DNA of 64,000 nucleotides. Source: a virus. The stretch is taken from positions 14,246-78,245 of IMG/VR virus record IMGVR_UViG_3300030060_002841; one strand, given 5' to 3'. This document shows positions 15,577-37,661 of the stretch, one piece after another (position 1 is the stretch's first letter; each line of letters begins with the position of its first letter). Under the pieces are notes generated by a model. It was not told the DNA's origin. It saw nothing but the letters and a program-made list of their open reading frames with translations, and did not search any database. Made by a program: the position numbers and the translations under genes.

Positions 15577-16248
15577 ATGACAACCATAGGTGATGTTGTA
15601 TCTAGAGTTAGAAATCAAGTAAAAGCAGAAATAGAAGATGCTTTTGTAACTGATAGATATTTATATAGTTTAATTCTAAAGTCAGCACAGGTTTTAATGA
15701 GAAGACAAGACAATGCTAATAAACTAATGAAATTTAATAGCATCTGGCAAACACTACCCTATGTAGAATTAGAGGAAGTAGATAAAATAGAAGCAGGTTG
15801 TAGTGGCATGAAAAGTGGTTGTACTATAATGAGAAGTAAACTTAAACTTCCAATATTTATGGAAGGTTATTGGGGACCGTTGATTAGAACAGTATCTTCT
15901 ATAGATGGTTCTATAGAGCTTAGTCCCACACAACCTGGTACATATACTTCTATGTCAAAAACTACATCATTTAAATATAATAAGACAAAATATTTTTGGT
16001 GGTTAAATGGATATATGTATCTGCCTAATGTAGATTGGGAAGCAATAAAAGTTGAAGGTGTATTTGAAGGTGATATATCAAAATGGAATTGTGAGGAAGA
16101 AGACAACTGTATGCCTAGGTATAAACAACAGTTTTATGTACCAGAATTTTTATTTGCAGAAATAGAACAGCAAGTAATTCAACAATTAATGATGACACTG
16201 AAAGTTCCTTCAGAGGATTCAGATAACAAACAAAATGTAAATAGATAA
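15577..16248 (+). CDS. Tail ring / tubular protein
   Basis: 223 aa; N-terminal TIGDVVSRVR helix, YFWWLNGYMY strand, C-terminal helix; upstream of the muzzle. Confidence 0.6.
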   Translation: MTTIGDVVSRVRNQVKAEIEDAFVTDRYLYSLILKSAQVLMRRQDNANKLMKFNSIWQTLPYVELEEVDKIEAGCSGMKSGCTIMRSKLKLPIFMEGYWGPLIRTVSSIDGSIELSPTQPGTYTSMSKTTSFKYNKTKYFWWLNGYMYLPNVDWEAIKVEGVFEGDISKWNCEEEDNCMPRYKQQFYVPEFLFAEIEQQVIQQLMMTLKVPSEDSDNKQNVNR

Positions 16249-17141
16249 TGGGAGATAGTGTATCACATAAATATAGAACTTTTAATCAACTACTGGAGGA
16301 TGTAAGTATTGATTTCCGTACATATGCTTTAGAAGGTATGATAGAACCTCAGCAATTAATTAAAGTTGCAACTAGAGTTAATTATGATCTTGGATTAAAA
16401 ATACATAGAACAAAAGAAGAAGTTATAGATGTTGATCATTTTAAATCTAAACTTCCAGATGATTTTGCATATTTAAACTATGCATGGGTTTGTGGAGAAT
16501 ATAAAGTATCTAATACACCACCATCTGGTACACATGTAGATACTACACATAAACAATATGTACCAAATCCTGATGGAGGTGATATAGGACCTTGTGATGA
16601 TCCTACATGTAAAGATGTGTGTACTGTACAAAAATGTGATAATCAAGATGGATATATGGTTATACAGTATACAGGTGGAGAACAATATAGAACATTTACA
16701 GAGTTTTTTCCATTAAGAATAAAACATAATAATTCTGTAGTTTGTGATTGTCCTAATTTAAGTGTACAGTCAGCAGATATAGCACAAGTTAAAGATGGCT
16801 ATTTATTAACTAATTTTGAATGTGGTAAAATTTATTTAAGTTATCAAGGAGCTATGGAAGATACAGAAGGTAATCTATTGGTATTAGATCATCCTTATTG
16901 TAATGAGTATTATGAATATGCACTAAAACAAAGAATTCTTGAAAACATGTTATTTAATGGTGAGCAAGTTTCTCAACAATTAGGATTAATTGAGCAAAAG
17001 CTTAGAGCTGCTAGGAATACTGCATTAGGTTTTGTTAATACTGGTAACTTTAAAGATTTCCAAAAGATTTGGGAAACAAATAGAAAAGCACAGTATCATA
17101 ATTATTATAATATGTTTAAAAGTCATCCAACACTAAGATAA
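16248..17141 (+). CDS. Tail ring/tubular protein (P22 gp4-like adaptor family)
   Basis: 297 aa; KLPDDF and GYLLTNFECGKIYLSYQG motifs; directly upstream of the muzzle as in crAss-like phages. Confidence 0.6.
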   Translation: MGDSVSHKYRTFNQLLEDVSIDFRTYALEGMIEPQQLIKVATRVNYDLGLKIHRTKEEVIDVDHFKSKLPDDFAYLNYAWVCGEYKVSNTPPSGTHVDTTHKQYVPNPDGGDIGPCDDPTCKDVCTVQKCDNQDGYMVIQYTGGEQYRTFTEFFPLRIKHNNSVVCDCPNLSVQSADIAQVKDGYLLTNFECGKIYLSYQGAMEDTEGNLLVLDHPYCNEYYEYALKQRILENMLFNGEQVSQQLGLIEQKLRAARNTALGFVNTGNFKDFQKIWETNRKAQYHNYYNMFKSHPTLR

Positions 17142-23100: not shown

Positions 23101-25658
23101 AAGATAGACAGGATGTTGATACTATACGTTGTGATGAACATGATAATGATTGGCCTGTAGATCCATCAGAAGCTATAACTTCTTTAGAAAGTGTTAGAAC
23201 GCGGCTTATAAATAATCAAAAATTAGATTTACTTACAAGATCAGATAATAGTAAATTAACTAAGGCTATAAATATAACACGTGATGAAAATGACATGGTA
23301 TATATTAAAATGGATCAATCTTTATATTCAAATATAAAAGATTTAAGACCTATTAAATTTAATATAGACCTACCTTTCTTGGATAATAAAACATTGTCTT
23401 TATCATATGAATATGCTAATAATAAAAAGAGAGGTCTTAAGTTACTTAGAAATACAGAAGATGGTATTATAGAAGAAAAATATGTACCAAAAGTACGTAC
23501 ATATAAATTAGTTGACAAAGAATATTCAGGGTTTTTAATGTTCTTAGAATCAAAAGACATACTGTATGGAATACTAAAAAAAGATGATAAAGTATATGAG
23601 TTTATACATTTAGAAGGTGATACTTATGGTATATATGATACACAAAAATCAATACATGACATGCCTTCTTTTGAATGTGCTAATGATAAGGATGCTGTTA
23701 ATGGTGTTATGGCTGCAGTTAAAAGTCAAAGATCTGGAAACTTAAGAATGAATGATGAGTTTTGTATTAATCTTGGTGTAGATGTAGATTATTTTACATA
23801 TTTAGATTTTGATCAAAATACATTTGCTGTTGCAGATTGGATTCAAACTATTATTGATTATACAAATGATGTATATTCAAATGATTTAAATTGTACAGTA
23901 GAAGTAACTGTTTTACATATTTGGGAACAAACAATTTATGATGTAGCTGGTTCGACAACAGCTGGTGGAGTTATTACAGACTATGGTGATTTTGCAGAGT
24001 ATAATTTTATTGCAGAAGGATTTTATGCTGGTCCACCTCATTGCGCAGATTATAATGTACAATGTCTTATAAATTGGAATGGTATTCCAGAATTAGCTGC
24101 AGAGTTAGTACCTGGGTTAAATTCAGTTGATATGCTTCATATGATAACTAGGAAACAAATAGGAGGTGGTATAGCTCATGGTATAGGGGGTTATTGTGAA
24201 TTAGAAAATAATATGGTTGATAATGAATTTATGTCAGGTGGTGCTAAATCAGTTGCAGTAAGTGGTAGTTTAATTCCACAGTTTCCTTCATTTGAATATG
24301 GGCAAGAAATAACAGGGGACAATATGGGTGGTTGGATATATCAAGCAGTAATTGTACCTCACGAAATGGGTCATGTTGTAGGTGCTTATCATTCACATAA
24401 TTGCTTTGCATATAATGCTGATCCAACTTATAATTATGCAGGAGGCGCTTTAGATAATTGTGTAATCACTGGTGAATCAGGACCTTGTAATGCTGGTAAT
24501 GGAGTTTGTCCTCCAGATAATAATACAACATTTTATAATACTAATTTAGGCTTTGGTACATTAATGAGTTATTGTCATGTTGGTAATGGTTGTAATGGTG
24601 ATGTTGCTGTTCAATTACAGTTCCATCCAGTTGTAAAAGAACAAAGAATAATACCTTTATTAGAAGATCATGCTACTCCAGAGTGTTCTGCGTGTGTACC
24701 ACCTCTTGGAGGATGTACTGATCCACTAGCAGAAAATTATAATCCTAATGCCACGTTTGATGATGGTTCATGTACGTATAGAGAAATTTGTGGATGTAAA
24801 TGTGATACTGGATATACAATGGTTTATGCTGGTACTACTAATCCAATACCTGAAGCAATATGTATTCAGTATGGTGGAACAAATACTGAATGTATATTAG
24901 TTGATTGTGAAGAATCACCATATGAACCTTTTCCACCTTCATATGAATTAGGGGGTATTTGGAGACATAATGATAGATGTGATTTATATACAAACTATTA
25001 TAATGAACAATATGGTTGGGAAATAGAATTTGTAGAATCACAAGGTCAAGTTGTAAATACATTAAGAAATGTAGAATATGAAATGGAAGCTTGGTTATAT
25101 AAAACTCCTGAAGATACTAATGGTAATCCTTTAGAAGGTTATTCAAGTTGTGAAAATAAATATCATGAATTAGATTTTAACTTTAATAAAGCTATTATTT
25201 ATAATACAGAACAAGTATCAGGTTTATTAAATTTAGTTTTAGCACAAAAAAATAATGCTTGGTTTAATAATCAATTTCCAAATACAAATGGTGCAGTTTA
25301 TAATATACTGTATAAAAAAGAAGAGCAGAAGTTTAGATTTAATCAATTTTGGGATACAACAAGAAATAGAGGTGAGATAGTATTTCCAAATGGTGACTTT
25401 GATAGTAATATATTTACAGTTAAGGAACCAATATGGCATACTGAATTAGATGGATATACAAGACAACTTAATCCACAAAATTTAAATTACTTTAAAGATC
25501 CATTAGAAAGAAAAAAGTTCAGACATTATTGGAACAAAATATTATTAAGAAGAGAGCCGCTATCAATGATAGGACCTGCTGGCCCAATGTTAGAACCAGA
25601 AACAAGGAACATGATATTTAAAGTAGAAAACTCAAATATTAATTTATCATTTAGGTAA
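17148..25658 (+). CDS. Muzzle / tail stabilization protein with two large payload insertions
   Basis: 2836 aa; beta-propeller-like N-terminus, F.RDEQYAFFIRW, YHSPD, FGGDSYI, HEYGSCES and WTVSYDPK..WVSFHDWHP motifs as recalled for crAss muzzle / P22 gp10-like proteins; position after the ring genes. Confidence 0.75.
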   Translation: MSNKQKGHIPKPPQFQNTSNKDTRIFVKGMQKDLDPTVLGKDVWTHCINCINNTKAGDAGTVSNEQGNKICAEIPYTVIGGIHLYGDKWVIYSTDDEASEIGLFDDSQCTYEAIVNDPCLSFDKRYLITGASKENFDCSWQVYWDDGLNPSRTLNLDNIPYMQQVANEGEDCVEYENILPLQLDCERIRLAPLIETPTVVLEKSKTGGKLPNGSYQAFIAYAVNENKIGDYYTSNVQALFDHESPSSALNIKLTNLDTRFEGFRLVILSNNQGVQKAKDIGYYSTEQDFITIGNLEDIGITVPKERLPEYNPVIERSDKMFVVNEYLVRTGPRENFNFNYQCLANKIKTRWVSVEYPADYYRQGGHNPTFMRDEQYAFFIRWIYNTGDKSRSYHIPGREATEDDLVGPPASEVLNAYTEDSYWQVANTAYYNAALDVGGIVYDGGIVRAKGQMGYWESTELYPNDPVRWCDLCSKPIRHHKMPDEQTMINQPENYTARSSADNKRIYVLGVEFGNIAWPVDNDGLPIPNIVGYEILTGDRTGSESIVSKGLIRNMQKYRIPDNESKSGKTSESQSVESALGVQGLFPNYPYNDLGTDPYLSQTEVVKDKDFVGINDYSHKIFTYHSPDTSFNRPFLGAQEIKLYGPTTGFSLGRFQTSEDHPGHKLIRNIGAIIALVIGAGYAIMEMRGRKKQIMRNATALSIGQNPGPYADTTFDTEDKYDLNTSSSSLNLGPFGGAIGGSSTSGVVDTTGETTEDVATDGSGNALDGAAPGAAAGSVAADNAAANAQAMEDGQSNVEQSDGISIPPAPNVSAEQFQNVSTTGVVIPGTTQDTTDDVNTAMNPVISSAINVDGSIQADQTAQEEVIKKVPGHIGPQKQVEFEDSRYKSSPGFIGQVFKIMSFLNLMTTGGQEIIDLIYELMSFQNYALKFNSYGLYGNEVPVVGRSRHSLVQARYLANSFQNMSVGGQNFRINNLQRPRTVVINSETNLPNLSVAAVLPNNLQDNSKFILSQIGDAWVSSNFTAPISSRIAAHYVGLKVDNPNQYGKLDGIRQVPSGRPFILKKTDEALTDDVAEKIYETGKIKKDDTTEVIFGGDSYIARYSEKVIMPFFWDFLMGQPDGYNFNYFYHQNVPYVRFWYNSDRYNLSGIVQPITSLSFTWANDPSNAGVPSALHNLDRNQLTDLSEDNTATEDDPFGGAPAFGGGTTYDGPPAGDGLFTIKHRYMYTHCNGANDFFVETKINVGYRDWRDELGKRHYDTDEFADLTELFHAKIIKNGNFFRYDNSLQKDQMFTQNISYGFIQDPTYDPFIAEECWVHYPKRLIYSRQAMLDATQDMWRIFLPQDYVDFKNSINTIKPINKTGAMILFPHLAPVMWSGINTLQAGQRDIILGDGGLFNQRPQNVVNADLPHEYGSCESSRSAINTPSGLYFISQQQGKIFQYTKGLVNIAEQGMKQWFNKYLPSRLLAAFPDMENHVDVDNPIAGVGCQSVYDPNYDLVYFCKKDYEVINDECLEYDPDTGVVVNETECYDVEPILSCPPDYELIDGECCIDIVRDPIWTCTTVNSTQEDLTVINPNFEIDEQPPGQIGTLSVASGLTPGPWVQCKRGPGVGNYNPSGLGTGNSVIDAPPCFPTATPTNQQTPDTLPFEDCSIGFPLPGDSGWLPAYQGKTYIGMTIQTNGIGQVTTWGPNYNTWQEGVSQELSSPMTVGTTYQMTLALTQGWEDQTPDIVVSIWGGSDQCPCEDNGPMSSTYLGYDNNTHNSEILWTSPALTQSPPQWTLYTATFTPTSPHSHIHFRVGRLSGGLHMTLPSTTTNGYVYMDGISTIQSTTEVRKTCECPEGTDMYWTGTDTPATEEDCINCISGGYNVDEPCVFAGCVECRFAECIPPDEEDVVTPIDLDNEEFFKDISWTVSYDPKIKAWVSFHDWHPELTFPSLNHFLTTKTKQLEVPYCPPPYIYNPETGMCENYECPEGSVYQDGQCCTEDRQDVDTIRCDEHDNDWPVDPSEAITSLESVRTRLINNQKLDLLTRSDNSKLTKAINITRDENDMVYIKMDQSLYSNIKDLRPIKFNIDLPFLDNKTLSLSYEYANNKKRGLKLLRNTEDGIIEEKYVPKVRTYKLVDKEYSGFLMFLESKDILYGILKKDDKVYEFIHLEGDTYGIYDTQKSIHDMPSFECANDKDAVNGVMAAVKSQRSGNLRMNDEFCINLGVDVDYFTYLDFDQNTFAVADWIQTIIDYTNDVYSNDLNCTVEVTVLHIWEQTIYDVAGSTTAGGVITDYGDFAEYNFIAEGFYAGPPHCADYNVQCLINWNGIPELAAELVPGLNSVDMLHMITRKQIGGGIAHGIGGYCELENNMVDNEFMSGGAKSVAVSGSLIPQFPSFEYGQEITGDNMGGWIYQAVIVPHEMGHVVGAYHSHNCFAYNADPTYNYAGGALDNCVITGESGPCNAGNGVCPPDNNTTFYNTNLGFGTLMSYCHVGNGCNGDVAVQLQFHPVVKEQRIIPLLEDHATPECSACVPPLGGCTDPLAENYNPNATFDDGSCTYREICGCKCDTGYTMVYAGTTNPIPEAICIQYGGTNTECILVDCEESPYEPFPPSYELGGIWRHNDRCDLYTNYYNEQYGWEIEFVESQGQVVNTLRNVEYEMEAWLYKTPEDTNGNPLEGYSSCENKYHELDFNFNKAIIYNTEQVSGLLNLVLAQKNNAWFNNQFPNTNGAVYNILYKKEEQKFRFNQFWDTTRNRGEIVFPNGDFDSNIFTVKEPIWHTELDGYTRQLNPQNLNYFKDPLERKKFRHYWNKILLRREPLSMIGPAGPMLEPETRNMIFKVENSNINLSFR
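21850..22640 (+). other. Inserted galactose-binding-like jelly-roll domain inside muzzle
   Basis: NPNFE...W...TPD...GKTYIGM...EGVSQELSSPMTVGTTY...WTLYTATFTP...YVYMDGI; this pattern resembles carbohydrate-binding-like domains of Bacteroidota secreted proteins. Confidence 0.6.
23150..24780 (+). other. Inserted M12B/reprolysin-like zinc metalloprotease (pro + catalytic + GCTD repeat) inside muzzle
   Basis: HEMGHVVGAYH (HExxHxxGxxH) at 24360-24392; Met-turn GTLMSYCH at about 24555-24578; putative cysteine switch SFECAND; C-terminal GCTDPLAENYNPNATFDDGSC repeat. Confidence 0.85.
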
Positions 25659-28600
25659 TGAAATTTAGTAAAGACGGATATAAGAAAAATAGTGAGGATA
25701 ATCAAAAACCTTTTTTATTTATACAAGGGGGTGAAGATGGTACATCTATAACTATGGAAGATGTTACAATTCCTGTAATGGGTATTGATAACTTAGGTTA
25801 CAGTGAATTAATGACACCAGGCGGTGAATATAAATTTCCTGGTAGTACTGTTTTAGAGCTTCCATTAAATAAAAAAGCATATGGTGGCCCAGGAGGTATG
25901 ACTACTGTTCTAAGAAATAGATTATATGATAGGAAGAGAGATAAGCAGTTTGCTGAAGAAGGAACAGAAGTAAGACCTACACCTATGATGCCAACACCTC
26001 CTATTATGGGTCCATATCAAGAATCTACTTTAACAGAGGATGAAATACAAATGATTACCAATTGGGTTAGTGAACTTAAAAAAGAAGAGGAAAGAAAAAA
26101 TAAAGATGTTGTTTCTTCAGATAATTTATCAGAAGATTTTGAAGCTATTGATAATGATTTAAATAATAGTGCTAATACTCAAGAAAATGAAACTAATATT
26201 TTAGATGCTAAAATAAAAAAAGATTTAGATCTTATAAAGAATGCTCCATCTAATTTAAAAAGTCATACTGACTTATTAAGTACAGATCTTCCTGATTATA
26301 ATGCAGGTAGTGATTTATATTTTGAAATAGATAGTACAGGAGGTTTAGGTCAGACTTTAAATATAACTGATAAATATGATAAGTTAAAAAATAAAACAGC
26401 ATTAGATTTAGAAATAGAAATAGAAAAATCTAGAGATCCAATTTCAGGTACAGATGTTTCTGAACTTAGTGATATAGTTGTTAAATCAAATGTACAAGAA
26501 AGATTACATCTTGATAATTTAACTAAGAATTTACAAATAAAAGAAAGAAAGAAAGCAAATGCTACAATAGATGATTTAGAAAAACAATATTATCAACAAT
26601 ATGTATCTAGTGATTACTCATTAGCAGATGCTGAGTCTGTAAGAAAAGTACAACAAGATGTTGTTGATGCTGGGTTAGGGCATTTACTAGGTAAGTTTGG
26701 CCCTAACAAAGATGGTATAGATGGTAAGTATGGACCTAAAACTAAAAATGCTGTAAGGCAAATGCTTGCAAATCAAATAAATTCATTGGGTACTGATTAT
26801 AACTTTACAGAATTTTGGAACCCTGTAGAAGATGGTTATATATTTAATAATAGTCAACAATGTACCTCTGAAGGTTGTGCTGATATGGTTATTAAAGATT
26901 TTCAAAATTCTGGAGTAGATGTAGAAAAAATTGGTATTTCAGGAAACAATGCTTGGAATATGTATGATGCTTTGACTCATAATAATGGTATAAGTAAATA
27001 TAACATTTTTGAAAATATGGAATCTCCAGCTAGTGTGGAGGATGTACGTAATAAAATGCATAATGCCATTAAAGAAGATCCAATATATGTTGGACCTAGA
27101 AAAGAAGATATTCAATCTCCACTTGAAAAAGGTGATGTTGTAGGTATATTTTTTCCTAACTCAACTTATCAAGAAGTAGCTATTAATGAGGCTGGTGGAC
27201 TTGGTGCTAGAGAAGGTTCTAATCCTACTTATAATAGTCATGTTGGTTATGTTATTGGACATGATGTAGATGGCACACCTTTAATAAAACATTCTTTTGT
27301 TCCTGATAATCCTGAAACAGAAGTAGTAGAAGGTAGATCTGTAATTACACGTGCTGATGAACTAAAAGTAGCAGGAGTTGATAGTTATATTACTTGGGCT
27401 GTAGAACCAGCTAAATTTCAGTTAAATAAAACATTTGATAGATCTAATATTGAACCTGTTATTGAACAAGATGAAATGGATCTTATGACAGATGAGTATC
27501 TTAAAAATTTAGAATTAAAGATAGAAAGGGAAATTACTGATCCTAATCATAAAGAAATGATAAAATTTCAATATGAAACTATAACTAATTCAATAGGAAC
27601 TATTGCTGACGAACTTGGTATAGTTGCACCTTATGATATTATTAGAGATGTACAATTAGGTATTCAAAATGTAGAAACAGGAATAGGAGGTACAAGTGTT
27701 AAGAATCAAAAGTTTATAGATATGCGTGGTGGTAAGGCTTCAATTGAAGATATAGTTAAGCTTTATCAAGATGGAAAAATTACAGACAAAGATTTACTAT
27801 TAAGTGGTGGTAATGAAGTAATTGATGTGGCTTTAAATAAAGGTATAATGGGTGGTGGCGGATTAAGTAAATTTAATTTTTTGTTTGGTAAAGATGATGA
27901 TTATGAAACACCTTTTGAAGCTACAAATAAATTTAGAGAACCAGAGGATATATCAAGAGGTTTATATAATACTAAATTAAGTCAAGCAAGTCCTTTATAT
28001 TTACACTATTATGGTTTAGATGAAAATAATATAGATAAAGTATATAATACGGATGGTAGTTTAAATAAAGAAAATGCTGAATCTGCAATAAATTTTCAAA
28101 CAAGTAGGTTATTAAGAAACTATGATTTGTTTAATTCTTTTAAGCAAAGATTTAATAATAAGTTTCCAAATGATCCTATGACAGAAGAAGATGTTATAAA
28201 TATGATGATAATGAGTCATAATCAAGGAACAGATATACTTTTAAATTTTACTCAAACAGGAAGAACACACGGTGCTAAAAATTCAGATGGAGATTATATA
28301 CACACTCCTAAACAATGGGAAATAGAACAAGGTTTAGTTGATGGATCACCATGGGATGTAGAAGATTATTTATTTGAGCTAAGAAGAATGTATAGAGGAA
28401 ATGTTAAAGATTATACTAGCACTGATTGGAAACATCTTGATTCTATTAATCCAGGTTTAGGTAAATGGTTTTATAATATAGATAGCCCAGATGGTCATGA
28501 ATCATATATTAGTAAAGTTAAAAGATACGTGGATAACAAAAATGTTCCATGGACAGCTTATGAACTCAATGAATATCTTTCAGATCTTGAAAGTAAAAGA

Positions 28601-29305
28601 GATGAAATAATATCTTTATCAACAGATCAACAAGATGGTAGATTAACAGAACTTTTAAATGAACAAGAGTTTGTTAATATGTATATAGACAAAAAAAGAC
28701 TTGAACAAGATTTACCAGAAGTTTTAAGTATGTCAACTGAGCGTCAATTAGAATTTGAGGCAAGAGAACAATATGCTAAAATAAATTCTATTACTGAGAA
28801 TATAGATCAAGTTAGTGCAATATTAAATGATTTAAAAAGTCAAGATAAATTAAATGAAAATCTCCTTACAGTGGATAACCCAGAAGATGATGATGAAGCA
28901 TTAGCATCAAGAAAAGAAGGAGGTGAAATTAATTCAGAAAAATTATTTCCTGAATGGGATGGCTTACAAAAAGATTTAGCAATGTATAGAGAGGGAAATG
29001 AAATATCAGATGAATCTAAAATGAAACTTGCAGATCTAGGGTTTGAACTTAAGCCACGTGATAAATATGAAAACTATCCAACTGATATGATAGTTAGTTT
29101 TATAGATCTAAAAAACTTTAAACCTGGTGGAGATATTACATTAGATAGACAAGTAGATATATATGAAGATTATATTAATGGTAGATTAAAAAGCAATAAA
29201 GCAACTAAGGTATATGATAAATTAAATAGATTTTATTATTATGCAGCAAAAGGTAAAGAAATGTCAATCTTAGATTACATGAAACACAAGTTGAAACAAT
29301 CATAG
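25658..29305 (+). CDS. Virion cargo protein: multidomain peptidoglycan hydrolase (PG-binding + NlpC/P60-CHAP + SLT-like)
   Basis: PG_binding_1-like VRKVQQ..DGIDGKYGPKTKNAV (about 26630-26770); Cys/His peptidase GCADMV...GNNAW...KGDVV...SHVG (26860-27420); lysozyme-like VETG...SRGL...SHNQG...SYISKV (27650-28520). Confidence 0.7.
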   Translation: MKFSKDGYKKNSEDNQKPFLFIQGGEDGTSITMEDVTIPVMGIDNLGYSELMTPGGEYKFPGSTVLELPLNKKAYGGPGGMTTVLRNRLYDRKRDKQFAEEGTEVRPTPMMPTPPIMGPYQESTLTEDEIQMITNWVSELKKEEERKNKDVVSSDNLSEDFEAIDNDLNNSANTQENETNILDAKIKKDLDLIKNAPSNLKSHTDLLSTDLPDYNAGSDLYFEIDSTGGLGQTLNITDKYDKLKNKTALDLEIEIEKSRDPISGTDVSELSDIVVKSNVQERLHLDNLTKNLQIKERKKANATIDDLEKQYYQQYVSSDYSLADAESVRKVQQDVVDAGLGHLLGKFGPNKDGIDGKYGPKTKNAVRQMLANQINSLGTDYNFTEFWNPVEDGYIFNNSQQCTSEGCADMVIKDFQNSGVDVEKIGISGNNAWNMYDALTHNNGISKYNIFENMESPASVEDVRNKMHNAIKEDPIYVGPRKEDIQSPLEKGDVVGIFFPNSTYQEVAINEAGGLGAREGSNPTYNSHVGYVIGHDVDGTPLIKHSFVPDNPETEVVEGRSVITRADELKVAGVDSYITWAVEPAKFQLNKTFDRSNIEPVIEQDEMDLMTDEYLKNLELKIEREITDPNHKEMIKFQYETITNSIGTIADELGIVAPYDIIRDVQLGIQNVETGIGGTSVKNQKFIDMRGGKASIEDIVKLYQDGKITDKDLLLSGGNEVIDVALNKGIMGGGGLSKFNFLFGKDDDYETPFEATNKFREPEDISRGLYNTKLSQASPLYLHYYGLDENNIDKVYNTDGSLNKENAESAINFQTSRLLRNYDLFNSFKQRFNNKFPNDPMTEEDVINMMIMSHNQGTDILLNFTQTGRTHGAKNSDGDYIHTPKQWEIEQGLVDGSPWDVEDYLFELRRMYRGNVKDYTSTDWKHLDSINPGLGKWFYNIDSPDGHESYISKVKRYVDNKNVPWTAYELNEYLSDLESKRDEIISLSTDQQDGRLTELLNEQEFVNMYIDKKRLEQDLPEVLSMSTERQLEFEAREQYAKINSITENIDQVSAILNDLKSQDKLNENLLTVDNPEDDDEALASRKEGGEINSEKLFPEWDGLQKDLAMYREGNEISDESKMKLADLGFELKPRDKYENYPTDMIVSFIDLKNFKPGGDITLDRQVDIYEDYINGRLKSNKATKVYDKLNRFYYYAAKGKEMSILDYMKHKLKQS

Positions 29306-29326
29306 CTATTAGATTATATGCTGATT

Positions 29327-29349
29327 ATTTAGTATATTATAATATATAG
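29327..29349 (+). promoter_or_regulatory. Putative phage promoter
   Basis: atttagTATATTATaatatatag upstream of 29362. Confidence 0.55.
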
Positions 29350-29361
29350 TGCACTTTTTTT

Positions 29362-32300
29362 ATGGGTTATAAAAACAAATACATATTAAACTATTTAAAA
29401 AACGGAGGTAGTCTACCAAAGTTTAATGGTGGTGGTATTCTTTCTGGTACAGATTTAGATTACTACGATCCTAATTTGGTAAAAAATAAGTTTCCAGATT
29501 ATGATGATAGTGATAATGTATATACTAAAATGAATGATCCAAAAAACAAACCAGGTAATAAAGCTGAAATGATATTTACCAATTTACAAAAAGCTGTAAA
29601 AGATGGTAGAATAAAACAATCACAATATGATGCTATATATTCTTCTTGGCAAGAATTAGGACAACCTGACGTAAGAAATACTGGCTCATCATTAATGAGT
29701 GCACTAGCTACATTGGTTGGAGAAGGTCAAATGAGCAGTGATGGTAGAGATAGACCTTATACTTTACTAACACATCCTAATACTATTTGGGTTGATATGG
29801 ATGCTGATCCTAATATGATTATAGATGATATGGCAGAAGAGTTTATGCATATAAATCAAGCTGATGAAAAAGGTTATCTTAAGTATGTTACACAAGGTGC
29901 TTTACTAGATGGAATTGCACAAAGACTTCCTGGTGCAGCTATTGGTGCTATATCAAGCATAACAGATTTTTTTGGTTTAGATTCTACTTCAGATTGGATT
30001 GATGAAAATATAGCACCTACATTTGATCCATATAATAAAACATGGACATTGGAAGGTGGTCATACTGTTGATGAGAATCCAAGCAATGAGTATTTAAAAA
30101 ATCTTAAAGAAGAAATAAATAAAACTCCTGTGGTAGAAGAGAAAAAAGATTTTTCAGGAAAGAATCCTCATGAGTATGGTACAGATGATTATTATGATTG
30201 GAACAAAAGAAAAAGACAAAATATGTTATATGGTAAGAGATACGGGGGAGCTTTACCTATAGCACAAATGGGTGGTAAAGATTTTTTATTTAATTATACA
30301 TCTGAAGGTTCTAGTTCTTCTGATAATACTTCTAATTTTGGACAACCTAATCTTAACTATATTGATCCAAAAGATGACTTAAGTTTTGGTGTAGATCCAA
30401 TGGGTGGTTTAGGACATTCTTTACAAAATCTTGCAGCTAATATTAAAATACCAGCTGGTTTTGGTCAATCTCCTACTGTTGAAGATCCTCCAGCTCCTAA
30501 TTCAGATCCTGATGGTGACGGTATACCTACAGGTATTGATGCAACTCCAGAAGGAGATAGTGGTTCTAACTTTAATCCTCAAGAAGCTAGTGATGGCTCT
30601 GGTGGTGGCTCTGGTGGTGGATCAGATGGTGGATCAGATGGTGGAGATAACTCAAATTCTAATGGTAATTCAGGAGGAGATGAAGTTGTTCCTGGTAGTG
30701 ACAATGATATTGATAATGACGGTATACAAGATGATAAGGAAGCAGCAGATGGTAAAATTGTTTGTCAACAATGTAATCCTGATGGATCAGGCCCAATAAG
30801 TAAAATGTTTGATGGCCCAGAGTGTCCTGCAGGATTTGAACCTGAAAGTGATATTAATCCTTGTGACGGAATGAAAAAGCAAGAAGATCCTTCTGCAGAA
30901 ACTGAAGATATTGAAAAAGTTAAACCGGGTTGGCATAGTCCTGATATTTATAGTATTCATCCTGGTTTAGATGAAACTGCATTAGGTGCATTAGCAGGAT
31001 GGGTTCACGGTGCTGGTGTTGATTTTGGATTATGGGATCCAGGATTTAAAAGTGGTAAAGAAAAAGAAGAAATAGAAAAAGAAGTAGAAGAAAAAGAATT
31101 AGAAAAAGAATCTAAAAATAATGAACTTAGTGATTTAGAAAATGTAGATGAAAATAATGAAGAAGAAAATTTAGAAGATAGTTCACAAGATGTAGATGAA
31201 AATGAAGTTATAGATGATGGAGAAGGTTCATTTAGTGAAGTATTTGCTAAAAAGAGAGAAGAGCTTGGTCCTGGTAAAACATTTACTTGGAATGGTAAAT
31301 CATATACAACTTGGTATGAAGGTGAAGAGGAAGCTAGCACAGGTAATGGAGATGGTAATGGAGATGGTGATGGAAATGGTGATAGCGTAACACCTTCAGA
31401 AAATTTACAAAACTATAACCAAGAAATGGAAGAGTTATGGAATGATCCAAATGGAGATTCTGTATTTTGGAGTGATGAACAAAGAGCAGAACATAAAAGC
31501 AGACATTTTAATGAAGATGGTACGCCTAAAACACAAGAACAAAAAGATGCTGAGGCAAAGCAAAGAGAAGAAGAATCTAAAAGTAAAATGTACTTTGATG
31601 AAGATACTGGTGAATACTATACTAATCATCCAAACATGTATGATGAAAATGATCAGTTATTGCCTCAATACCAAATGTTAGGTGGAGGTATACCAAAGTT
31701 TCAACCTGGAGGCGGAATACTATCTGGTCAAAGTGTAAAATATTCTTCAAATCCAAATAAAGCAAAAGAGTTAGATAAAGATGGTGATGGAATAATTGGT
31801 GTTGATGAATCTTTTAAACTATCTGAGGAAGATATGAAATTAAAAAAAGATGATGAGCAAACATGGTTAGAGTGGGCTGAGTCAGGATCACCTTTAAGAG
31901 AAGTAGGTTACCGTTCATTATCTAATTTTATAGATTTACTTACTATACCAGGTAAAGTTGTAGCAGAAACAACAGAAGCTATTACTGGAAAAGGTGATGG
32001 AGAATTTAATATTTTAGATGCTTTACCTTCAATGGAAGGAGAGTTTGGATTTAAAACTGCTGCAGGTAATCCATCAAAAACATTTTCATCAGTTGTTAAT
32101 CCAGAAGGAAGTTTTATAGCAAATTTAGGATTAGATATTTTAACAGATCCTTTGACGTGGACAGGTGTTGGTGCAGCTTCTAAAGTAAACAAATTAGATG
32201 ATTTAGCAAATATTACTTCAAAAGCAACTGTATTAGGAGATGATATAACAAAAACTGTTGTAACAGCATCATCAGATGATGTTTCAAATATATCAACTAA

Positions 32301-34827
32301 ATTACCAAATAAACCAAAAGTTGTATCTGCTGACGCTCAAAAGTACTCAGAAGAATTTTTATCTAAACAACCTAATTTTAAATCTGAAAGTCCTTACTTA
32401 GGAGGTCTTGATTTTGAAAAGCTACCTGATAAGTATAAAAAAATATTAGAGGATCAACGTGCTATAAATAGAACTGCTGTTAATAAAGAATATTCAACGG
32501 CTATAAATGATATAAGTAGTCCAGAGGGTATAAAAAGATTAAGTGATGATTTAACAGAACTATTAGTTAAAGGAGATAAAAAATCAGGTTGGGGAGGTTA
32601 TTATCCTAATGCTAGTCTAATTCCAGATGGCATGGTAGATGATGCAGTAAATAATTATTTAGAGTCTTTAAAGAAAATAAAAGTAACAAGCAAACAAAAG
32701 AAAAGTGCTGGTTCAGCATGGTGGGAATTAGGACAGGATACACAATATATAGATGAAGCTTATGGACCATTTGGAATGTTTACAAAACAAAAAGAAATTA
32801 CTGTACCTTTTTCTCAACCTAGGATAAATGTAAATCCAGATGTACATCCAACATCTTTAAAGTTATTAATAAATCATGAAATAGGACATCTTAATCAAGC
32901 TCTTCCTGCATTTTTAGATATGAAAAAATTTGATCCTAATAGATTTAAGAGTCTAAAAGCAATGAGTGATGAGCTTATGCAAACACCTCGTATGGATGAA
33001 TTTGGAAGATTAAAATTAGATGATGATTGGAACTTTGCACAAGCAATTCAAAGTCTTGGTAATAGAAATCCTACTTGGAATAATGCAGGATATAGAGCTG
33101 AAAGTGCAATTGATAGAAGATTGCTTGATGATTTAGAGTTGGATTATAATATTGGAGCAAGACAGGGTAATCCTAATATAGAAGATATGTTTGGGCCAGC
33201 AAGTGCATCTCCAACAGCTGATGTAAGAAATATGTATCAAACAGCTCCTTTTGGTTCTTACAAGTATTTTAGAGAAGGATCAGGAAGAGGAAAAGAAGCA
33301 GCTGCTTATCTATCAGAAATTAGATCTGATATGCTGCAAAGAGGTTTAATTAAAAATAGATATGATGAAATAACTCCAGAGATGATGAGAAACTATAGCA
33401 GAATTTATGATAGTCAAAGAGGCTTTACAGCATCAGCTCCTAATCCATATTTTCAAGATGTAAGGTTAATGAATCTTATGAGACCTGAGTTTCAATTTAG
33501 ATCTACGGATGAGTATATGAAAAATTTAAGTGTTCTATCTAAAAACTTAAATAAATTACCTGTTGCATTACCTTTTACTTTACCTTTGTTAAGTTTAGAT
33601 AAAGAACAAGATGGTACAGAGTTACGTAAAGCACAAAGTGGTATTGATAAGTCAGACTATAGTGAACAGATAAGATTAATGGAAATGCAAAACAGTCCTG
33701 ATAATCCTGTTATATCTAATTCTGTAGTAAATAGCAATAACCTTAAAGAAGAAAATTTATTTAAGGGAATGCAATTACCTATAATTATGGGATCAGAAGG
33801 TTCTTTAGATAATATTAACTTTGATAATACAGCTGCTAATAATACTAGTTTAAATGAATCACAAAATGTTACTGGTAGTGGGGATATATTTGGTGGATCT
33901 GGTGATGTTGATTTTGATCATTCAAATAGAAAAGAGCAATTTAGAGAGTTTACTGATCTATTTAGAAGAAAAGGAAATAAAAAAGCTTTAAAGAATCAAG
34001 AAGTTATTGAACCTAATAATGAGAGTGAAATACCATTTTTAGGTGCAGGGCCTTTTGATATTGTAGCAGAAAATGCAGGATTAGAATCTGACTTTAGTAG
34101 TATACCTTCTAGCCAAAGCACTAATGATATGAGTTTTAATTTAGGAGATATAGAAGATCCTTTAGCAGATGATGATGGAATAATGGAAGAGGAAGAAGAA
34201 ATAACTATATTAGATACTAATCAAAATAATAATCAGAACAATAATCAAAATAATAATCAAAATATTAATCAGATTGATAATCAAGGTGGTGATCAAGGTG
34301 GTGATCAAGAGCAAGGAAATCCTTTTAATACAGGAACAGGTGATGATGATCAAGTAGACTCTAGTTTTCCTGATGCGGATGGTGATGGTATACCTGATAC
34401 AATAGATGCAGATAGTGCAGCAGAACCTGAAGAAGCTACCGTAGAAGGATGCCCTTGTGAAGATGGAACAATGAAACCTGAATGTTGTGAAGAGGAGGAA
34501 GAAGAAGAAACTCAAGAAGAAGAGGAGGAAGAAAAGAAAAAGAAAGATGATGATGTACATAGAAATCCTTTTAGAGCTCTTGTACAAGCTGGACAGAAAG
34601 GTAAGTTTATAGCAAGACAACGTGCTGATAGAAAGTTTCAACAAGCACGTGTAAATAGAACAACATCAGATGCTTTATATGGTGATGATGCTACATATGC
34701 TACTAATCAAGGTGTAGGTAGACCTGATGGAAATGTAACAGAGTTTTATGGAAAGTATGGTGTAGAAGTTGATGATGATGTATTAGGTGAATTAATTGCT
34801 GCAGGTGCGGATATAGAAATTTTATAA
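29362..34827 (+). CDS. Polyvalent cargo protein with zincin-like domains and acidic Ca-binding repeats
   Basis: 1821 aa; EEFMH (29836-29850); HEIGH (32875-32889) with downstream EAAAYLSE; four DxDxDG motifs; long acidic low-complexity tracts; four copies of a GxxLPxAQxG(G)-type motif at domain boundaries. Confidence 0.6.
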   Translation: MGYKNKYILNYLKNGGSLPKFNGGGILSGTDLDYYDPNLVKNKFPDYDDSDNVYTKMNDPKNKPGNKAEMIFTNLQKAVKDGRIKQSQYDAIYSSWQELGQPDVRNTGSSLMSALATLVGEGQMSSDGRDRPYTLLTHPNTIWVDMDADPNMIIDDMAEEFMHINQADEKGYLKYVTQGALLDGIAQRLPGAAIGAISSITDFFGLDSTSDWIDENIAPTFDPYNKTWTLEGGHTVDENPSNEYLKNLKEEINKTPVVEEKKDFSGKNPHEYGTDDYYDWNKRKRQNMLYGKRYGGALPIAQMGGKDFLFNYTSEGSSSSDNTSNFGQPNLNYIDPKDDLSFGVDPMGGLGHSLQNLAANIKIPAGFGQSPTVEDPPAPNSDPDGDGIPTGIDATPEGDSGSNFNPQEASDGSGGGSGGGSDGGSDGGDNSNSNGNSGGDEVVPGSDNDIDNDGIQDDKEAADGKIVCQQCNPDGSGPISKMFDGPECPAGFEPESDINPCDGMKKQEDPSAETEDIEKVKPGWHSPDIYSIHPGLDETALGALAGWVHGAGVDFGLWDPGFKSGKEKEEIEKEVEEKELEKESKNNELSDLENVDENNEEENLEDSSQDVDENEVIDDGEGSFSEVFAKKREELGPGKTFTWNGKSYTTWYEGEEEASTGNGDGNGDGDGNGDSVTPSENLQNYNQEMEELWNDPNGDSVFWSDEQRAEHKSRHFNEDGTPKTQEQKDAEAKQREEESKSKMYFDEDTGEYYTNHPNMYDENDQLLPQYQMLGGGIPKFQPGGGILSGQSVKYSSNPNKAKELDKDGDGIIGVDESFKLSEEDMKLKKDDEQTWLEWAESGSPLREVGYRSLSNFIDLLTIPGKVVAETTEAITGKGDGEFNILDALPSMEGEFGFKTAAGNPSKTFSSVVNPEGSFIANLGLDILTDPLTWTGVGAASKVNKLDDLANITSKATVLGDDITKTVVTASSDDVSNISTKLPNKPKVVSADAQKYSEEFLSKQPNFKSESPYLGGLDFEKLPDKYKKILEDQRAINRTAVNKEYSTAINDISSPEGIKRLSDDLTELLVKGDKKSGWGGYYPNASLIPDGMVDDAVNNYLESLKKIKVTSKQKKSAGSAWWELGQDTQYIDEAYGPFGMFTKQKEITVPFSQPRINVNPDVHPTSLKLLINHEIGHLNQALPAFLDMKKFDPNRFKSLKAMSDELMQTPRMDEFGRLKLDDDWNFAQAIQSLGNRNPTWNNAGYRAESAIDRRLLDDLELDYNIGARQGNPNIEDMFGPASASPTADVRNMYQTAPFGSYKYFREGSGRGKEAAAYLSEIRSDMLQRGLIKNRYDEITPEMMRNYSRIYDSQRGFTASAPNPYFQDVRLMNLMRPEFQFRSTDEYMKNLSVLSKNLNKLPVALPFTLPLLSLDKEQDGTELRKAQSGIDKSDYSEQIRLMEMQNSPDNPVISNSVVNSNNLKEENLFKGMQLPIIMGSEGSLDNINFDNTAANNTSLNESQNVTGSGDIFGGSGDVDFDHSNRKEQFREFTDLFRRKGNKKALKNQEVIEPNNESEIPFLGAGPFDIVAENAGLESDFSSIPSSQSTNDMSFNLGDIEDPLADDDGIMEEEEEITILDTNQNNNQNNNQNNNQNINQIDNQGGDQGGDQEQGNPFNTGTGDDDQVDSSFPDADGDGIPDTIDADSAAEPEEATVEGCPCEDGTMKPECCEEEEEEETQEEEEEEKKKKDDDVHRNPFRALVQAGQKGKFIARQRADRKFQQARVNRTTSDALYGDDATYATNQGVGRPDGNVTEFYGKYGVEVDDDVLGELIAAGADIEIL
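34215..34310 (+). repeat. In-frame 12-bp microrepeats (NQNN x3-4; DQGG x2)
   Basis: aatcaaaataat/aatcagaacaat/aatcaaaataat/aatcaaaatatt and gatcaaggtggt-type units. Confidence 0.8.
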
Positions 34828-34829
34828 TT

Positions 34830-35078
34830 ATGACAGAAGTAAATTTAAATACAGAAAAAATAGTAGTAGTTCAAATGATTGGTTTACCAGAAAATGAAAC
34901 TATTTTAAATTATGTTGATCAAGTAGATAGAGATAAAGTTACAATATATAGAACTCTTGGAGGTAAAGTGCAAGGATATTTAGTAAGACAAGATGCTATA
35001 GATGAATTAGAAAATAATGGAGTGCAGGTTATATTACCTAGAGAGTATTATCAGATAGTGGAAAACGGAACAAGTTAA
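34830..35078 (+). CDS. Hypothetical protein
   Basis: 82-aa ORF tightly packed between cargo genes on the coding strand. Confidence 0.65.
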   Translation: MTEVNLNTEKIVVVQMIGLPENETILNYVDQVDRDKVTIYRTLGGKVQGYLVRQDAIDELENNGVQVILPREYYQIVENGTS

Positions 35079-35090
35079 ATAATTATAATT

Positions 35091-37661
35091 ATGGCTAAAA
35101 TAAATTTAAAGAAAGGTTTACCAAAAGGTTTTAAAATGGAAGGCAATAAGATTGTTAAAGATACTAGATTTGCTCATGGTGGTAATACTGGTATTAGTAC
35201 AGGTCAACAACGTGGCTATTCCATGGTTACTAATCCTTTTGGGTATGATGCAATAGATGAGTCATCTTATGATTCTCCATATAATAAAGTTAATACTTCT
35301 ATAAAATCTGTTCCTAGATCCCAGGCTAATATAGAAGCAGAAGGTGGAGAAACAATACTTACAGATACTAATAATGATGGTGTATTTGAATTTTATGACA
35401 TAGTTGGTAAAAGACACCATAAGGGTGGTGTACCTTTAGATGTTCCAGAACAATCATTTGTTTTTTCTGATACAGGTAAAATGAAATTGAATAAAGGTGA
35501 GATGGAAGAGATGAATATTCAATCTGATAAAAAATTAACACCTGCTAAAATATCTAAAAACTATAAACTAAATGAACATATAGCAACTCTTGATAATCCT
35601 TTGTCTGATAAAATATCAATAGATACTGCAGAATATATGTTAGATAAAAATAAAAAGAAGCTTTCTCAATTAGCTTTTTTACAAGAAGCAAAAAAAGGTT
35701 TTGAAGAAGGTGTACCTTTAGCTTCATATCCTTACTTAAAGGATAAAGGTATTGATCCTATTCAGTATTCAGCTGAGATACAAAATATATCTGAGCAAGA
35801 GGCAGCTGCTCAAGACATTGCACAAAGACCTGTTGATCAACGAGAGATGATAGAAAAGTTATCACAGTTTATACAGCAAGCTGAAACTCAACAACCACAA
35901 ATGGAACAAGGTCCAAATCAAATGGGAGCTCCAAGTGAAATGCAAGATCCAAATATGATGGCGCAAGGAATGCCACCTCAAGGTCAAATGGCTCCTCCTG
36001 CAATGGGGCAAGATCCTTTTGCTCAAAATCCTTTACAATCATTTATGCCTGGGCAACCATTACCACAAGCACAAGAAGGATTTTCAGAAGAGCAAATTGC
36101 TGATCTTAAAGCTAAAGGTATTGAATGGAATGCAGAAACAAGCTCATGGAATGCACCTGCAGGAAACTATAATGAAGGTCAAGCAGCAGCTTTAGCAAAT
36201 CAAGTTAAACAAGGTAATACAGTTCTTACAACGCAAGGTCTTGGAGATGTTGGTATTGGAGATCAAAAAGGTAGACAAACTAAACAAACTGATGAGTTTG
36301 GTAATGTTTATTACTTACAAGGTGAAGGTCAATTTGATAAAGAAGATTTTTGGAGTAGACAAGGTACGCTTATTGAAGGTATTAAAGATCCAGAAGGTAA
36401 TCAGGTATATACAAAAGATAACTTTGATATGTACAATAAAGATCATATTGGTGCTTTTCAAAAAGAAAAAAATGCATACTTAGATAGATTATCTGAATCA
36501 GATGCTGATATAAAAGCTAAATATACTGTAGATGGTGTATTTGATAAAGATGCTTATTATAATGATTATCATGGATATTTTGGTGAAGCAGGAAAAACTT
36601 ATACTGCACAAGATAATATGCTTGGTGAGTATACTTATAGTGATCCAGGAATAATAGCTGCAGAACAAACTTTAACACCAGAAGTAGTTATTAATGAACC
36701 TATTGAAGAGATAGAAGCACCAGAAGTTCCAGACTTTGAACCAGATATGGAAATGCCTGAGCCAGAGTTTTGGATACAAGATCAATTAAAAATGATGAAT
36801 TTGATGGGAGCTAAAATGAATCTACAAAAACGTAGACCATGGGAGGCAACTAATCAAGCATATACATTAGATAAGCAAGTTGTTGATCCACGAGGTGAGA
36901 TACAAGATGTGCAAGAGCAAGCTAGAATGGCTGGTGATACAACTGCATGGGCAGGATCAAAAAGGAATATGGCTGCTAAGTTAAGAGCTCAGGGTGTGGC
37001 TGGTAAACAGATATCACAAATAATGGATAAGTCTAATGAGGCTAATTTAAAGGCAGCTATACAAACTGGTAATATGAATGCTACTATTCAAAATCAAGTT
37101 AATCAAAAAAATAATGCAATACATTCTAGATTACATGATAAGAATATAGCAGTAGAACAAAATTTTGATAATGCTATGGCGGAGTTAAATACTTTGTTAA
37201 CAGATCAGTTAGCTAATTCATATACTAATATGGCAAATACATATAATATGAATACGCTATATCCTCAGTTTAATATTGATCCTAGTACAGGAGGTATGAT
37301 TACAGATACTAATTTACAAAAGTTGTATCCTAAACCTCAAGTACCAGAGCAAAGTAAAACAGATAGATTTATTGCTAGCATGGATGAATTAAAAAAGAGA
37401 GGTATAGATCCAGAAAAAATGCCAGCAGGTACTATAAATCAACTTGCAGGATTATCAGCTGAAGATGCAGATGCTGATGCTGCAAATCAAAACCCTTATG
37501 CACAAGCAAGTCCTTTTGCTAATACAATTGGTAATATTGGATATGGAGCACAGCAAAGTAAATTTGGAACGGAGAAGGCTAGAAAAAGATTTAGAATAGC
37601 TAGAAAAGGAGCAGAATTAAGAAAATGGTTCTCACCTTTACAGGGAAAATTTGCAAATTAA
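35091..37661 (+). CDS. Putative cargo/ejection protein
   Basis: 856 aa; ANIEAEGGE...GKRHHKGGVP...FVFSD domain, Q/P/M-rich linker, Asn/Gln-rich coiled C-terminal region; position in the cargo block. Confidence 0.55.
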   Translation: MAKINLKKGLPKGFKMEGNKIVKDTRFAHGGNTGISTGQQRGYSMVTNPFGYDAIDESSYDSPYNKVNTSIKSVPRSQANIEAEGGETILTDTNNDGVFEFYDIVGKRHHKGGVPLDVPEQSFVFSDTGKMKLNKGEMEEMNIQSDKKLTPAKISKNYKLNEHIATLDNPLSDKISIDTAEYMLDKNKKKLSQLAFLQEAKKGFEEGVPLASYPYLKDKGIDPIQYSAEIQNISEQEAAAQDIAQRPVDQREMIEKLSQFIQQAETQQPQMEQGPNQMGAPSEMQDPNMMAQGMPPQGQMAPPAMGQDPFAQNPLQSFMPGQPLPQAQEGFSEEQIADLKAKGIEWNAETSSWNAPAGNYNEGQAAALANQVKQGNTVLTTQGLGDVGIGDQKGRQTKQTDEFGNVYYLQGEGQFDKEDFWSRQGTLIEGIKDPEGNQVYTKDNFDMYNKDHIGAFQKEKNAYLDRLSESDADIKAKYTVDGVFDKDAYYNDYHGYFGEAGKTYTAQDNMLGEYTYSDPGIIAAEQTLTPEVVINEPIEEIEAPEVPDFEPDMEMPEPEFWIQDQLKMMNLMGAKMNLQKRRPWEATNQAYTLDKQVVDPRGEIQDVQEQARMAGDTTAWAGSKRNMAAKLRAQGVAGKQISQIMDKSNEANLKAAIQTGNMNATIQNQVNQKNNAIHSRLHDKNIAVEQNFDNAMAELNTLLTDQLANSYTNMANTYNMNTLYPQFNIDPSTGGMITDTNLQKLYPKPQVPEQSKTDRFIASMDELKKRGIDPEKMPAGTINQLAGLSAEDADADAANQNPYAQASPFANTIGNIGYGAQQSKFGTEKARKRFRIARKGAELRKWFSPLQGKFAN

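Follow-up and report, generated by a model that had tools for sequence, protein, structure and literature searches.

Of all phage molecules, the host encounters the injected virion proteins first, and in crAss-like phages these amount to several megadaltons. The locus described here raises the question of what a short peptide that recurs within such proteins is for. It lies in a stretch of 64,000 nucleotides (positions 14,246 to 78,245 of IMG/VR record IMGVR_UViG_3300030060_002841; hereafter the window, numbered from its first letter), which is the late-gene block of an uncultured marine crAss-like phage. Three large proteins encoded there, P0001 (1215 amino acids; 25658..29305, plus strand), P0002 (1821 amino acids; 29362..34827, plus strand), and P0003 (856 amino acids; 35091..37661, plus strand), are probably carried in the particle and injected, judging from gene position and from proteomics of the counterparts in the phage crAss001. 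An earlier note, made from the sequence alone, had described a doublet motif across all three and had proposed that interchangeable modules are strung together at conserved di-glycine sites, which are either cleaved, as by xxGG proteases, or used as a capsid-packaging signal. We found that the observation is real and that the modular reading is right, since the exchange of modules at the motif, which is new in this analysis, is now directly documented. The analogy to di-glycine proteases was not supported.

With the pattern G..[LI][PR].[AF][QN].G, five occurrences were found in the 20,695 amino acids of window proteins, exactly where the earlier note had placed them and nowhere else: four in P0002 (starting at amino acids 15, 295, 774, and 1418; nt 29404, 30244, 31681, and 33613) and one in P0003 (amino acid 321; nt 36051). 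The full form is thus present in two cargo proteins and not, as had been claimed, in three. Its reported absence from the tail proteins, the major capsid protein, and the RNA polymerase (RNAP) was borne out, as neither the pattern nor a hidden Markov model (HMM) detected it in the major capsid, tail, portal, ring, muzzle, or RNAP cargo proteins of this contig. Because the pattern had been written post hoc to fit the window copies, the stronger support comes from copies elsewhere, and the scoring HMM was built from outside copies only, with none of the window. It gave 9.6 bits for copy 1 and 4.7 bits for copy 2, while copies 3, 4, and 5 fell within the noise.

Copy 1 (29389..29448, on the plus strand, as are the other features of P0001 to P0003 given below; P0002 amino acids 10-29, …YLKNGGSLPKFNGGGILSG) lies 14 amino acids after the start codon. 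Copy 3 (31666..31728; amino acids 769-789, …MLGGGIPKFQPGGGILSG) is its near twin (…IPKFQPGGGILSG), with DNA differing at six synonymous sites, and copy 2 (30229..30276; amino acids 290-305, …KRYGGALPIAQMGG) is a hybrid at the breakpoint of a 277–amino acid module indel. The other two copies are degenerate. Copy 4 (33598..33642; amino acids 1413-1427, …QDGTELRKAQSG; -0.5 bits) is kept in a 92%-identical relative, L001, and fits a recurrent variant, DG-x-E-L-x-KAQ-x-G ([DY]G-x-E-[LI]PKAQ-x-G). At the relative place of copy 5 (36036..36080; P0003 amino acids 316-330, …MPGQPLPQAQEG; -2.6 bits), orthologues carry …DGYELPKAQLG, …DGVELPKAQLG, or …YGSELPKAQDG. Three of the window copies are clear members of the motif, and the two degenerate ones are backed by orthologues or by the variant class. 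An artefact of chance or composition in glycine-rich proteins would fit both the noise-level scores of copies 3 to 5 and the post hoc pattern. Residue shuffling, however, predicted 0.0095 copies per proteome, against five observed, and never produced more than one in 2000 shuffles. The motif also turned up independently, both in an unbiased sample of a domain family and in at least 120 loci of viruses, and orthologous positions carry canonical copies; such an artefact is refuted for copies 1 to 3 and is highly improbable for the set. Copies 1 and 3 share, after the core, a GGGILSG extension (29422-29448 and 31702-31728), which is kept even though synonymous sites differ and which did not appear in the general motif consensus. 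As the earlier note had held, the copies cut P0002 into four unrelated units, which showed no mutual similarity by BLASTP; an all-versus-all BLASTP of the window proteins found no internal duplication beyond the motif, and the P0002 domains had no Pfam or PHROG match.

The same peptide proved to be widespread among viruses. A DNA pattern back-translated from GGxLPKAQxG matched at least 120 contigs in the viral collection searched. Among the matches listed, 117 open reading frames (ORFs) carry GGxLPKAQxG in frame, many of them 500 to 2700 amino acids long and often with two or three copies. The full form is [FY]-[KQR]-x-G-G-x-Φ-P-K-A-Q-x-G, with [FY]-[KQR]-x-GG-x-LPKAQ-x-G in the viral matches listed. 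In 115 nonredundant copies from these matches, positions that the search had not fixed were nevertheless conserved (-3 F/Y/K, -2 K/Q/R, -1 Y/E/D, and +2 S; the residue two before GG was K, Q, or R in 77 of the 115), and everything beyond them was random, as is characteristic of short linear motifs. At the third codon positions of the motif's invariant residues, codon choice matches the background usage of the carriers. Synonymous codons thus vary freely, and it is the peptide that is under selection. This codon analysis, together with the synonymous differences between copies 1 and 3, led us to reject a repeat or recombination box at the DNA level. When 596 Gb of cellular genomes were searched with the same DNA pattern, the matches were mostly of high GC content, lacked the consensus flanks, and were essentially due to chance; about 40 were not in frame in any ORF of at least 30 amino acids. 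About five, of low GC content and within a large ORF, looked genuine and are probably phage contigs binned into metagenome-assembled genomes.

The window shares crAss-type markers with 73 of the 120 listed loci. Other carriers include a siphovirus tape measure protein of 728 amino acids, with the motif 105 amino acids before its C-terminal end, an ART-PolyVal domain protein, and LysM-SLT virion hydrolases. Together with the cargo proteins, these annotatable carriers are all proteins expected to exit through the tail. LysM domains begin 4 to 10 amino acids past some copies, and we considered whether the right flank has a general property such as a basic helix or a LysM domain. No such rule emerged, with 17 of 152 right flanks strongly basic and 4 of 152 LysM. 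For the small motif-bearing ORFs of another phage type (L087 and L128), PHROGs gave no useful names. The muzzle and the N-terminal domain described below identified Flavobacterium phage Fpv1 and Cellulophaga phages phi17:2 and phi4:1 as cultured relatives; the canonical motif was not found in Fpv1, phi17:2, or crAss001. The LPKAQ peptide appears in no phage paper found in our literature search, and the junction peptide is apparently undescribed. A search for peptide data on Cellulophaga phage virions gave no lead.

What happens at the motif is documented by L001, whose P0002 orthologue has 2090 amino acids and differs from that of the window in one large respect, an insertion of 277 amino acids at copy 2. 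RYGGALPKLQNG precedes the extra module and IKPLPIAQMG follows it, whereas the window has a single hybrid in which RYGGALP is joined to IAQMGG. The window DNA follows the left copy of L001 up to TTA CCT A and the right copy thereafter, which places the crossover inside the motif, in the Leu-Pro codons. Across loci, the motif connects at least seven clusters of near-identical left flanks with unrelated right flanks and at least five right-flank clusters with unrelated left flanks (e.g., L066, L098, L050, and L095). Gain, loss, and recombination of modules thus proceed through breakpoints that lie within a 10-residue peptide, and one intact copy is always left behind. These data show that the motif is a standard joint for the in-frame gain, loss, and swap of modules with retention of one intact copy. 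Such a joint accounts for the reshuffling of effector repertoires among closely related phages. The 277–amino acid module of L001 (6700-7560) contains His-rich strings, HIEQH and HIHGSMEHGAH, that resemble a metal site.

Such breakpoints might also be expected if the peptide had no reader at all and were simply a favoured flexible linker rich in helix breakers, persisting through in-frame microhomology and inheritance by recombinants. Its Gly/Pro-rich composition and predicted disorder fit this view. However, the synonymous sites are not conserved, so that little DNA homology exists between most copies, and a passive linker would not preserve L, P, A, Q, and G almost without change in thousands of clusters that have diverged. 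We therefore regard a linker without a reader as improbable.

The earlier note had placed di-glycine at the heart of the motif, and the evidence against this comes from the N terminus of P0001. Its first ~70 amino acids are conserved in 53 ORFs of the related loci fetched and form a small β-barrel domain (amino acids 1-70; 25658..25867), hereafter the N-domain. The alignment ends in V-x-E-x-P-[MKL]-A-[QK]-x-G (E-x-P-[MKL]-A-[QK]-x-G at the end of the domain in relatives), and similarity stops there. The end of the N-domain thus equals the core of the junction motif, minus the GG. A profile of the domain matched 4,716 clusters at E ≤ 1e-3 and 3,807 at E ≤ 1e-10 among 1.84 billion representatives of 50% identity clusters, mostly at the N terminus of proteins of up to 2,300 amino acids; the family was unmatched by Pfam. 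In the top 150 family representatives, a sample not selected for the motif, 111 of 151 N-domains end in P-x-[AFY]-[QKN]-x-G, and 27 of the 99 proteins of at least 600 amino acids have further strict motif copies. The commonest copy of the motif, that at the end of the N-domain, therefore lacks GG, and the alignments point to Φ-P-[KM]-[AF]-[QKN]-x-G as the conserved core. A conserved joint in thousands of protein clusters marks module borders in giant ORFs that are otherwise unannotatable.

In P0001 itself, this junction is degenerate (LELPLNKKAYGGPGG, which includes KKAYGG; 25853..25897; -2.0 bits) and occupies the same alignment columns as the PMAQxG of relatives. KKAYGG had been listed in the earlier note among single versions of the motif, and it and RFAHGG (P0003 amino acids 26-31; 35166..35183), whose orthologues have [MR]-x-[DYH]-GG, were retained. 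The others were not: for FAEEGTE, RKEGGE, FKPGGD, GKYGVE, SKFGTE, and the RKKGGEK of the portal, a test of position, the only one applied, gave no support, and RKGAELRK belongs to another conserved element, a C-terminal tail. A possible degenerate internal copy in P0001 (amino acids 728-744, …GGGGLSKFNFLFG…; 27839..27889) is weak, as is the local BLASTP match of this region to the start of P0002 (42% over 38 amino acids, E = 0.1).

An AlphaFold2 (AF2) model of a relative predicts a six-stranded barrel for N-domain residues 1-68, with a predicted local distance difference test score (pLDDT) of ~90, directly followed by the canonical motif at a pLDDT of <50. The fold has only generic small β-sandwich and cupin-like relatives (Z ≤ 5.7). 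The model thus suggests that the motif sits in a flexible linker that joins a folded domain to the module after it. Together with the indel and swap breakpoints inside the motif, this agrees with the claim that the phage strings interchangeable modules together and that the motif marks their joints. Nine of 114 copies lie within 40 amino acids of the N terminus, some only 4 to 9 amino acids from the initial Met, while none of 107 lies within 80 amino acids of the C terminus. On this evidence, the peptide goes with the downstream module, acting as its head. GGWLDKY, a companion element, is often found ahead of the motif, and some genes (L109, L113, L127, and L021) end exactly at …FTNYN-x3-GGWLDKY(N), where fused forms go on with GG-x-LPKAQ. 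The gene after such ORFs starts with the conserved M-K-A-E-I-L-K-I-A-G-V-K-S-E-K-E-F-Y-K-K-Y-P, followed by degenerate KKAQ-x-G cores, and this element appears to represent a second family of linker elements. In many relatives (among them L005:1005-1090, L008, L069, and L003), the frame of the N-domain gene is open for ~25 codons 5' of the domain and encodes a conserved peptide, …GGPNE[FM]…. This upstream frame lacks an ATG, and the end of the muzzle gene overlaps with it, which suggests a non-ATG start or coupling to that gene.

A conserved peptide in this position could be a proteolytic site. The zincin modules of the same proteins, or another head or tail maturation protease, would then cut the joints at assembly or after ejection, freeing the modules and removing short N-terminal leaders. 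The motif is found at every module boundary and at some N termini and never near C termini, and the processing of T4 and phiKZ cargo shows just this placement. Those systems, the T4 capsid-targeting sequences with gp21 and the phiKZ inner-body proteins with gp175, likewise use a short conserved peptide near N termini and between packaged parts that is never needed near the C terminus. Their sites are (L/I)-x-E or (S/A/G)-x-E and their prohead protease is identified. Here, in contrast, the motif is unrelated in sequence and lacks a conserved Glu, the window showed no such protease, and the motif is also present in a protein of the tail tube. The genes that stop exactly at GGWLDKY(N) are also compatible with cutting, as is the tape measure copy 105 amino acids from the end, since in lambda and T5 the tape measure protein is cleaved close to its C terminus.

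The third unit of P0002 contains a zinc peptidase–type motif, HEIGH (amino acids 1172-1176; 32875..32889), in a typical hydrophobic context. It marks a candidate protease, although Pfam gave no match and a search for homologues of this unit returned six partial matches only, at ~20% coverage. In motif carriers, HExxH reaches 0.32 per 1000 amino acids against 0.07, a 4.4-fold enrichment. The zincin in P0002 and this enrichment keep the protease idea alive. However, 72% of the carriers have no HExxH in the same chain. Pfam detected no protease in the cargo proteins or in the two halves of a 5470–amino acid protein encoded downstream, and no cysteine protease of C5, C48, or C63 type among the 19 window proteins scanned, a scan outside of which the first 14 kb of the contig, itself incomplete, lie. 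No prohead protease was seen in the window, where the only ORF between the portal and major capsid protein genes, of 425 amino acids, had no Pfam match.

The sequence of the motif also fits no known specificity (ΦxGG↓, L/IxE↓, or Q↓G), and because its K and Q positions tolerate M, I, Q, E, and K, no fixed P1 residue is apparent. The xxGG sites of adenovirus, of the African swine fever virus protease pS273R, and of ubiquitin-like proteases do resemble it in having Gly-Gly after a partly conserved residue. They require M, I, or L four residues before the cut, whereas the motif has K, Q, or R there instead of a hydrophobic residue, and GG is dispensable, being absent from the N-domain copies. This, with the lack of a Pfam cysteine protease in the scanned proteins, is why we abandoned the analogy. 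We also considered cross-linking between K and Q and dropped it, as K is often M, I, Q, or E and Q is sometimes K. In MARTX toxins, effector domains are freed at inter-domain linkers, cut after Leu by an internal cysteine protease activated by inositol hexakisphosphate. They share with the present proteins swappable modules on one chain, short recognizable linkers, and a processing enzyme among the modules; they differ in being secreted bacterial toxins without sequence or fold relation, in which cutting is established, while here it is hypothetical.

A close parallel in overall architecture is with the polyvalent proteins, which are very long, are delivered with DNA, carry many unrelated and rapidly shuffled effector domains, and often include a zincin whose predicted role is to process the chain (Iyer, Burroughs, Anand, de Souza, and Aravind 2017; PMC5512222). 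The likeness lies in long chains of shuffled modules, and one motif carrier has an ART-PolyVal domain. That prediction of zincin processing would favour cutting; on the other hand, N4 virion RNAP and several polyvalent proteins travel uncut (PMC5512222). Term searches of that paper brought up no conserved junction peptide, in contrast to the single defined motif of 10 to 13 residues found here, with exchange occurring inside it. The crAss001 paper (PMC10172136) mentions no cargo cleavage or processing, we found no newer paper on the processing of cargo, and there is no direct evidence of cutting anywhere. On balance, we regard a proteolytic site as possible but rather unlikely; that the joints are cut at some stage is a substantial minority possibility.

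The other proposal of the earlier note, a capsid-packaging signal as such, is weakened by the motif in a siphovirus tape measure protein and by its absence from the RNAP cargo. Since a protein of the tail tube carries the motif, the idea of a packaging tag needs widening. Tentatively, and with somewhat less than even confidence, we favour over cutting the reading that the motif is a standard inter-module joint that a shared partner reads as a docking or handling tag. The partner would read the peptide, and a copy would for that reason be kept after each exchange. The contact would most likely take place inside the particle and position or thread each module, the chain staying uncut in the virion. 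Such a role could be common to carriers that probably exit through the tail, namely, crAss-like cargo, tape measure protein, the polyvalent ART protein, and virion peptidoglycan hydrolases. The model for it would be the GG-flanked segments of the crAss001 cargo protein C1 (gp45) on the tail rings and the portal.

C1 (Bayfield et al. 2023, PMC10172136; 7qog chain M) is, like P0003, encoded between the muzzle and RNAP genes, and P0003, which has orthologues in 33 loci, is probably its counterpart. C1 contains six aromatic-x-GG half motifs that flank its two docked segments. The helix docked on rings R1/R2 (214-245) is reached four amino acids after AYGG (209-210), the portal-bound domain (425-552) starts with FGGWL (426-430), and FAYGG (562) lies 10 amino acids past that domain. 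Residues 425-552 are reported as resolved (PMC10172136), and the FGGWL joint falls within them. It is because these half motifs flank the docked helix and the portal-bound domain, with FGGWL inside a resolved stretch, that we prefer docking to cutting. In P0003, AF2 predicts a folded domain at amino acids 62-233 (35274..35789; pLDDT >90) that resembles C1's portal-bound domain, preceded by a stretch at amino acids 29-65 of pLDDT <50 that the half motif RFAHGG opens. Against 7qog_M, VIA-align gave Z = 5.8 and a root mean square deviation of 4.5, with 100 of 126 residues aligned at 19% identity. This match ranks tenth among helical matches of similar Z, is the most extensive of them, and is better than any nonhelical one. 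hhalign of P0003 with C1 yielded a local match of E = 0.05 at FVFSD…TPAK. Foldseek found nothing for the domain, a PDB sequence profile search missed C1, and P0003 was unmatched among 50,697 phage records.

Several points weigh against a docking or handling tag. No partner can be named for the peptide. crAss001 has only the aromatic-GG half without LPKAQ, so that the structural analogy is indirect; gp45 also lacks the N-terminal β-barrel domain, and its homology to P0003 is not statistically secure, as the match does not rise above background by Z score, hhalign, or profile search. A docking tag has no obvious reason to avoid C termini, while a processing site has one, and where a long viral protein has a conserved peptide at each of its module boundaries, the classical explanation is a protease site; the enrichment of zincin modules in carriers points the same way. 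The RNAP cargo proteins do without the motif, which is thus not a general loading signal, and the cultured relatives Fpv1 and phi17:2 lack its canonical form.

The reader might instead belong to the host. An envelope chaperone, protease, or membrane protein could recognize the peptide after ejection and aid the refolding, anchoring, or crossing of modules. The annotatable carriers include envelope-acting LysM/SLT peptidoglycan hydrolases and the tape measure protein, a motif common to podovirus-like cargo and a siphovirus tape measure protein is easier to understand with a host factor, the nearest cultured relatives infect Flavobacteriia, and the strongly basic right flanks would fit as well. 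Conversely, no host partner is known, the ART module would act in the cytoplasm, and the properties of the flanks follow no general rule. We consider a host reader improbable.

A broader possibility, which we view as doubtful, is a plug-and-play cargo in which one peptide would be both the in-frame recombination joint for injected effector modules and the signal for a phage protease or gatekeeper that cuts or releases the modules in order during assembly or ejection, in crAss-like podoviruses and at least one siphovirus. Such a joint may be likened to exon shuffling without introns. Having a single peptide makes the choice between cut and docked joints directly testable, and if the reader or protease is found, the joint could serve, in laboratory phage-host systems, to tag foreign proteins for loading into phage particles.

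The C1-like proteins have a further conserved element, a basic C-terminal tail (37557-37661 in P0003, and in its orthologues) of the form …KKG-x-E-[LI]-[RK]-K-…-P-F-Y-x-G-K-M-G or …WFSPLQG. crAss001 gp45 and phi17:2 gp041 also end in Lys-rich GG tails. In the virion protein gp041 of phi17:2 (NC_021798.1, 37463-40150; 896 amino acids), and likewise in phi4:1 gp40, the N-domain ends in LEVPNFQAGG and is accompanied by GG half motifs and a C1-like domain; gp041 thus unites the N-domain with a C1-like EAEGGE…H-x-x-GG domain, which are split between P0001 and P0003 in the window.

The source contig is 78 kb long with a GC content of ~31%. Its co-oriented block holds crAss-type genes for the major capsid protein (2824-4443; Pfam Crass_capsid, 8.5e-28), a tail ring protein (16248-17141; CrAss_Ring_1, 5.5e-10), and the muzzle, here fused to a reprolysin-like zincin (17148-25658; crAss_MUZ, 2.6e-23), and BLASTP matched window proteins to crAss001 gp44, gp47, gp49, and gp50. 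P0001, which has weak PG_binding_1 and endolysin matches (Pfam and PHROGs), lies directly 3' of the muzzle gene and is followed by P0002, an 82–amino acid ORF (34830-35078) with no Pfam or PHROG match and no obvious crAss001 counterpart at this place, P0003, and proteins of 1139, 5470, and 1909 amino acids. The 5470–amino acid protein matches crAss001 gp47/gp50 and the 1909–amino acid protein gp49, which are RNAP-associated proteins. crAss001 carries cargo proteins encoded between its muzzle and RNAP genes (PMC10172136), to which P0001 to P0003 correspond by position.

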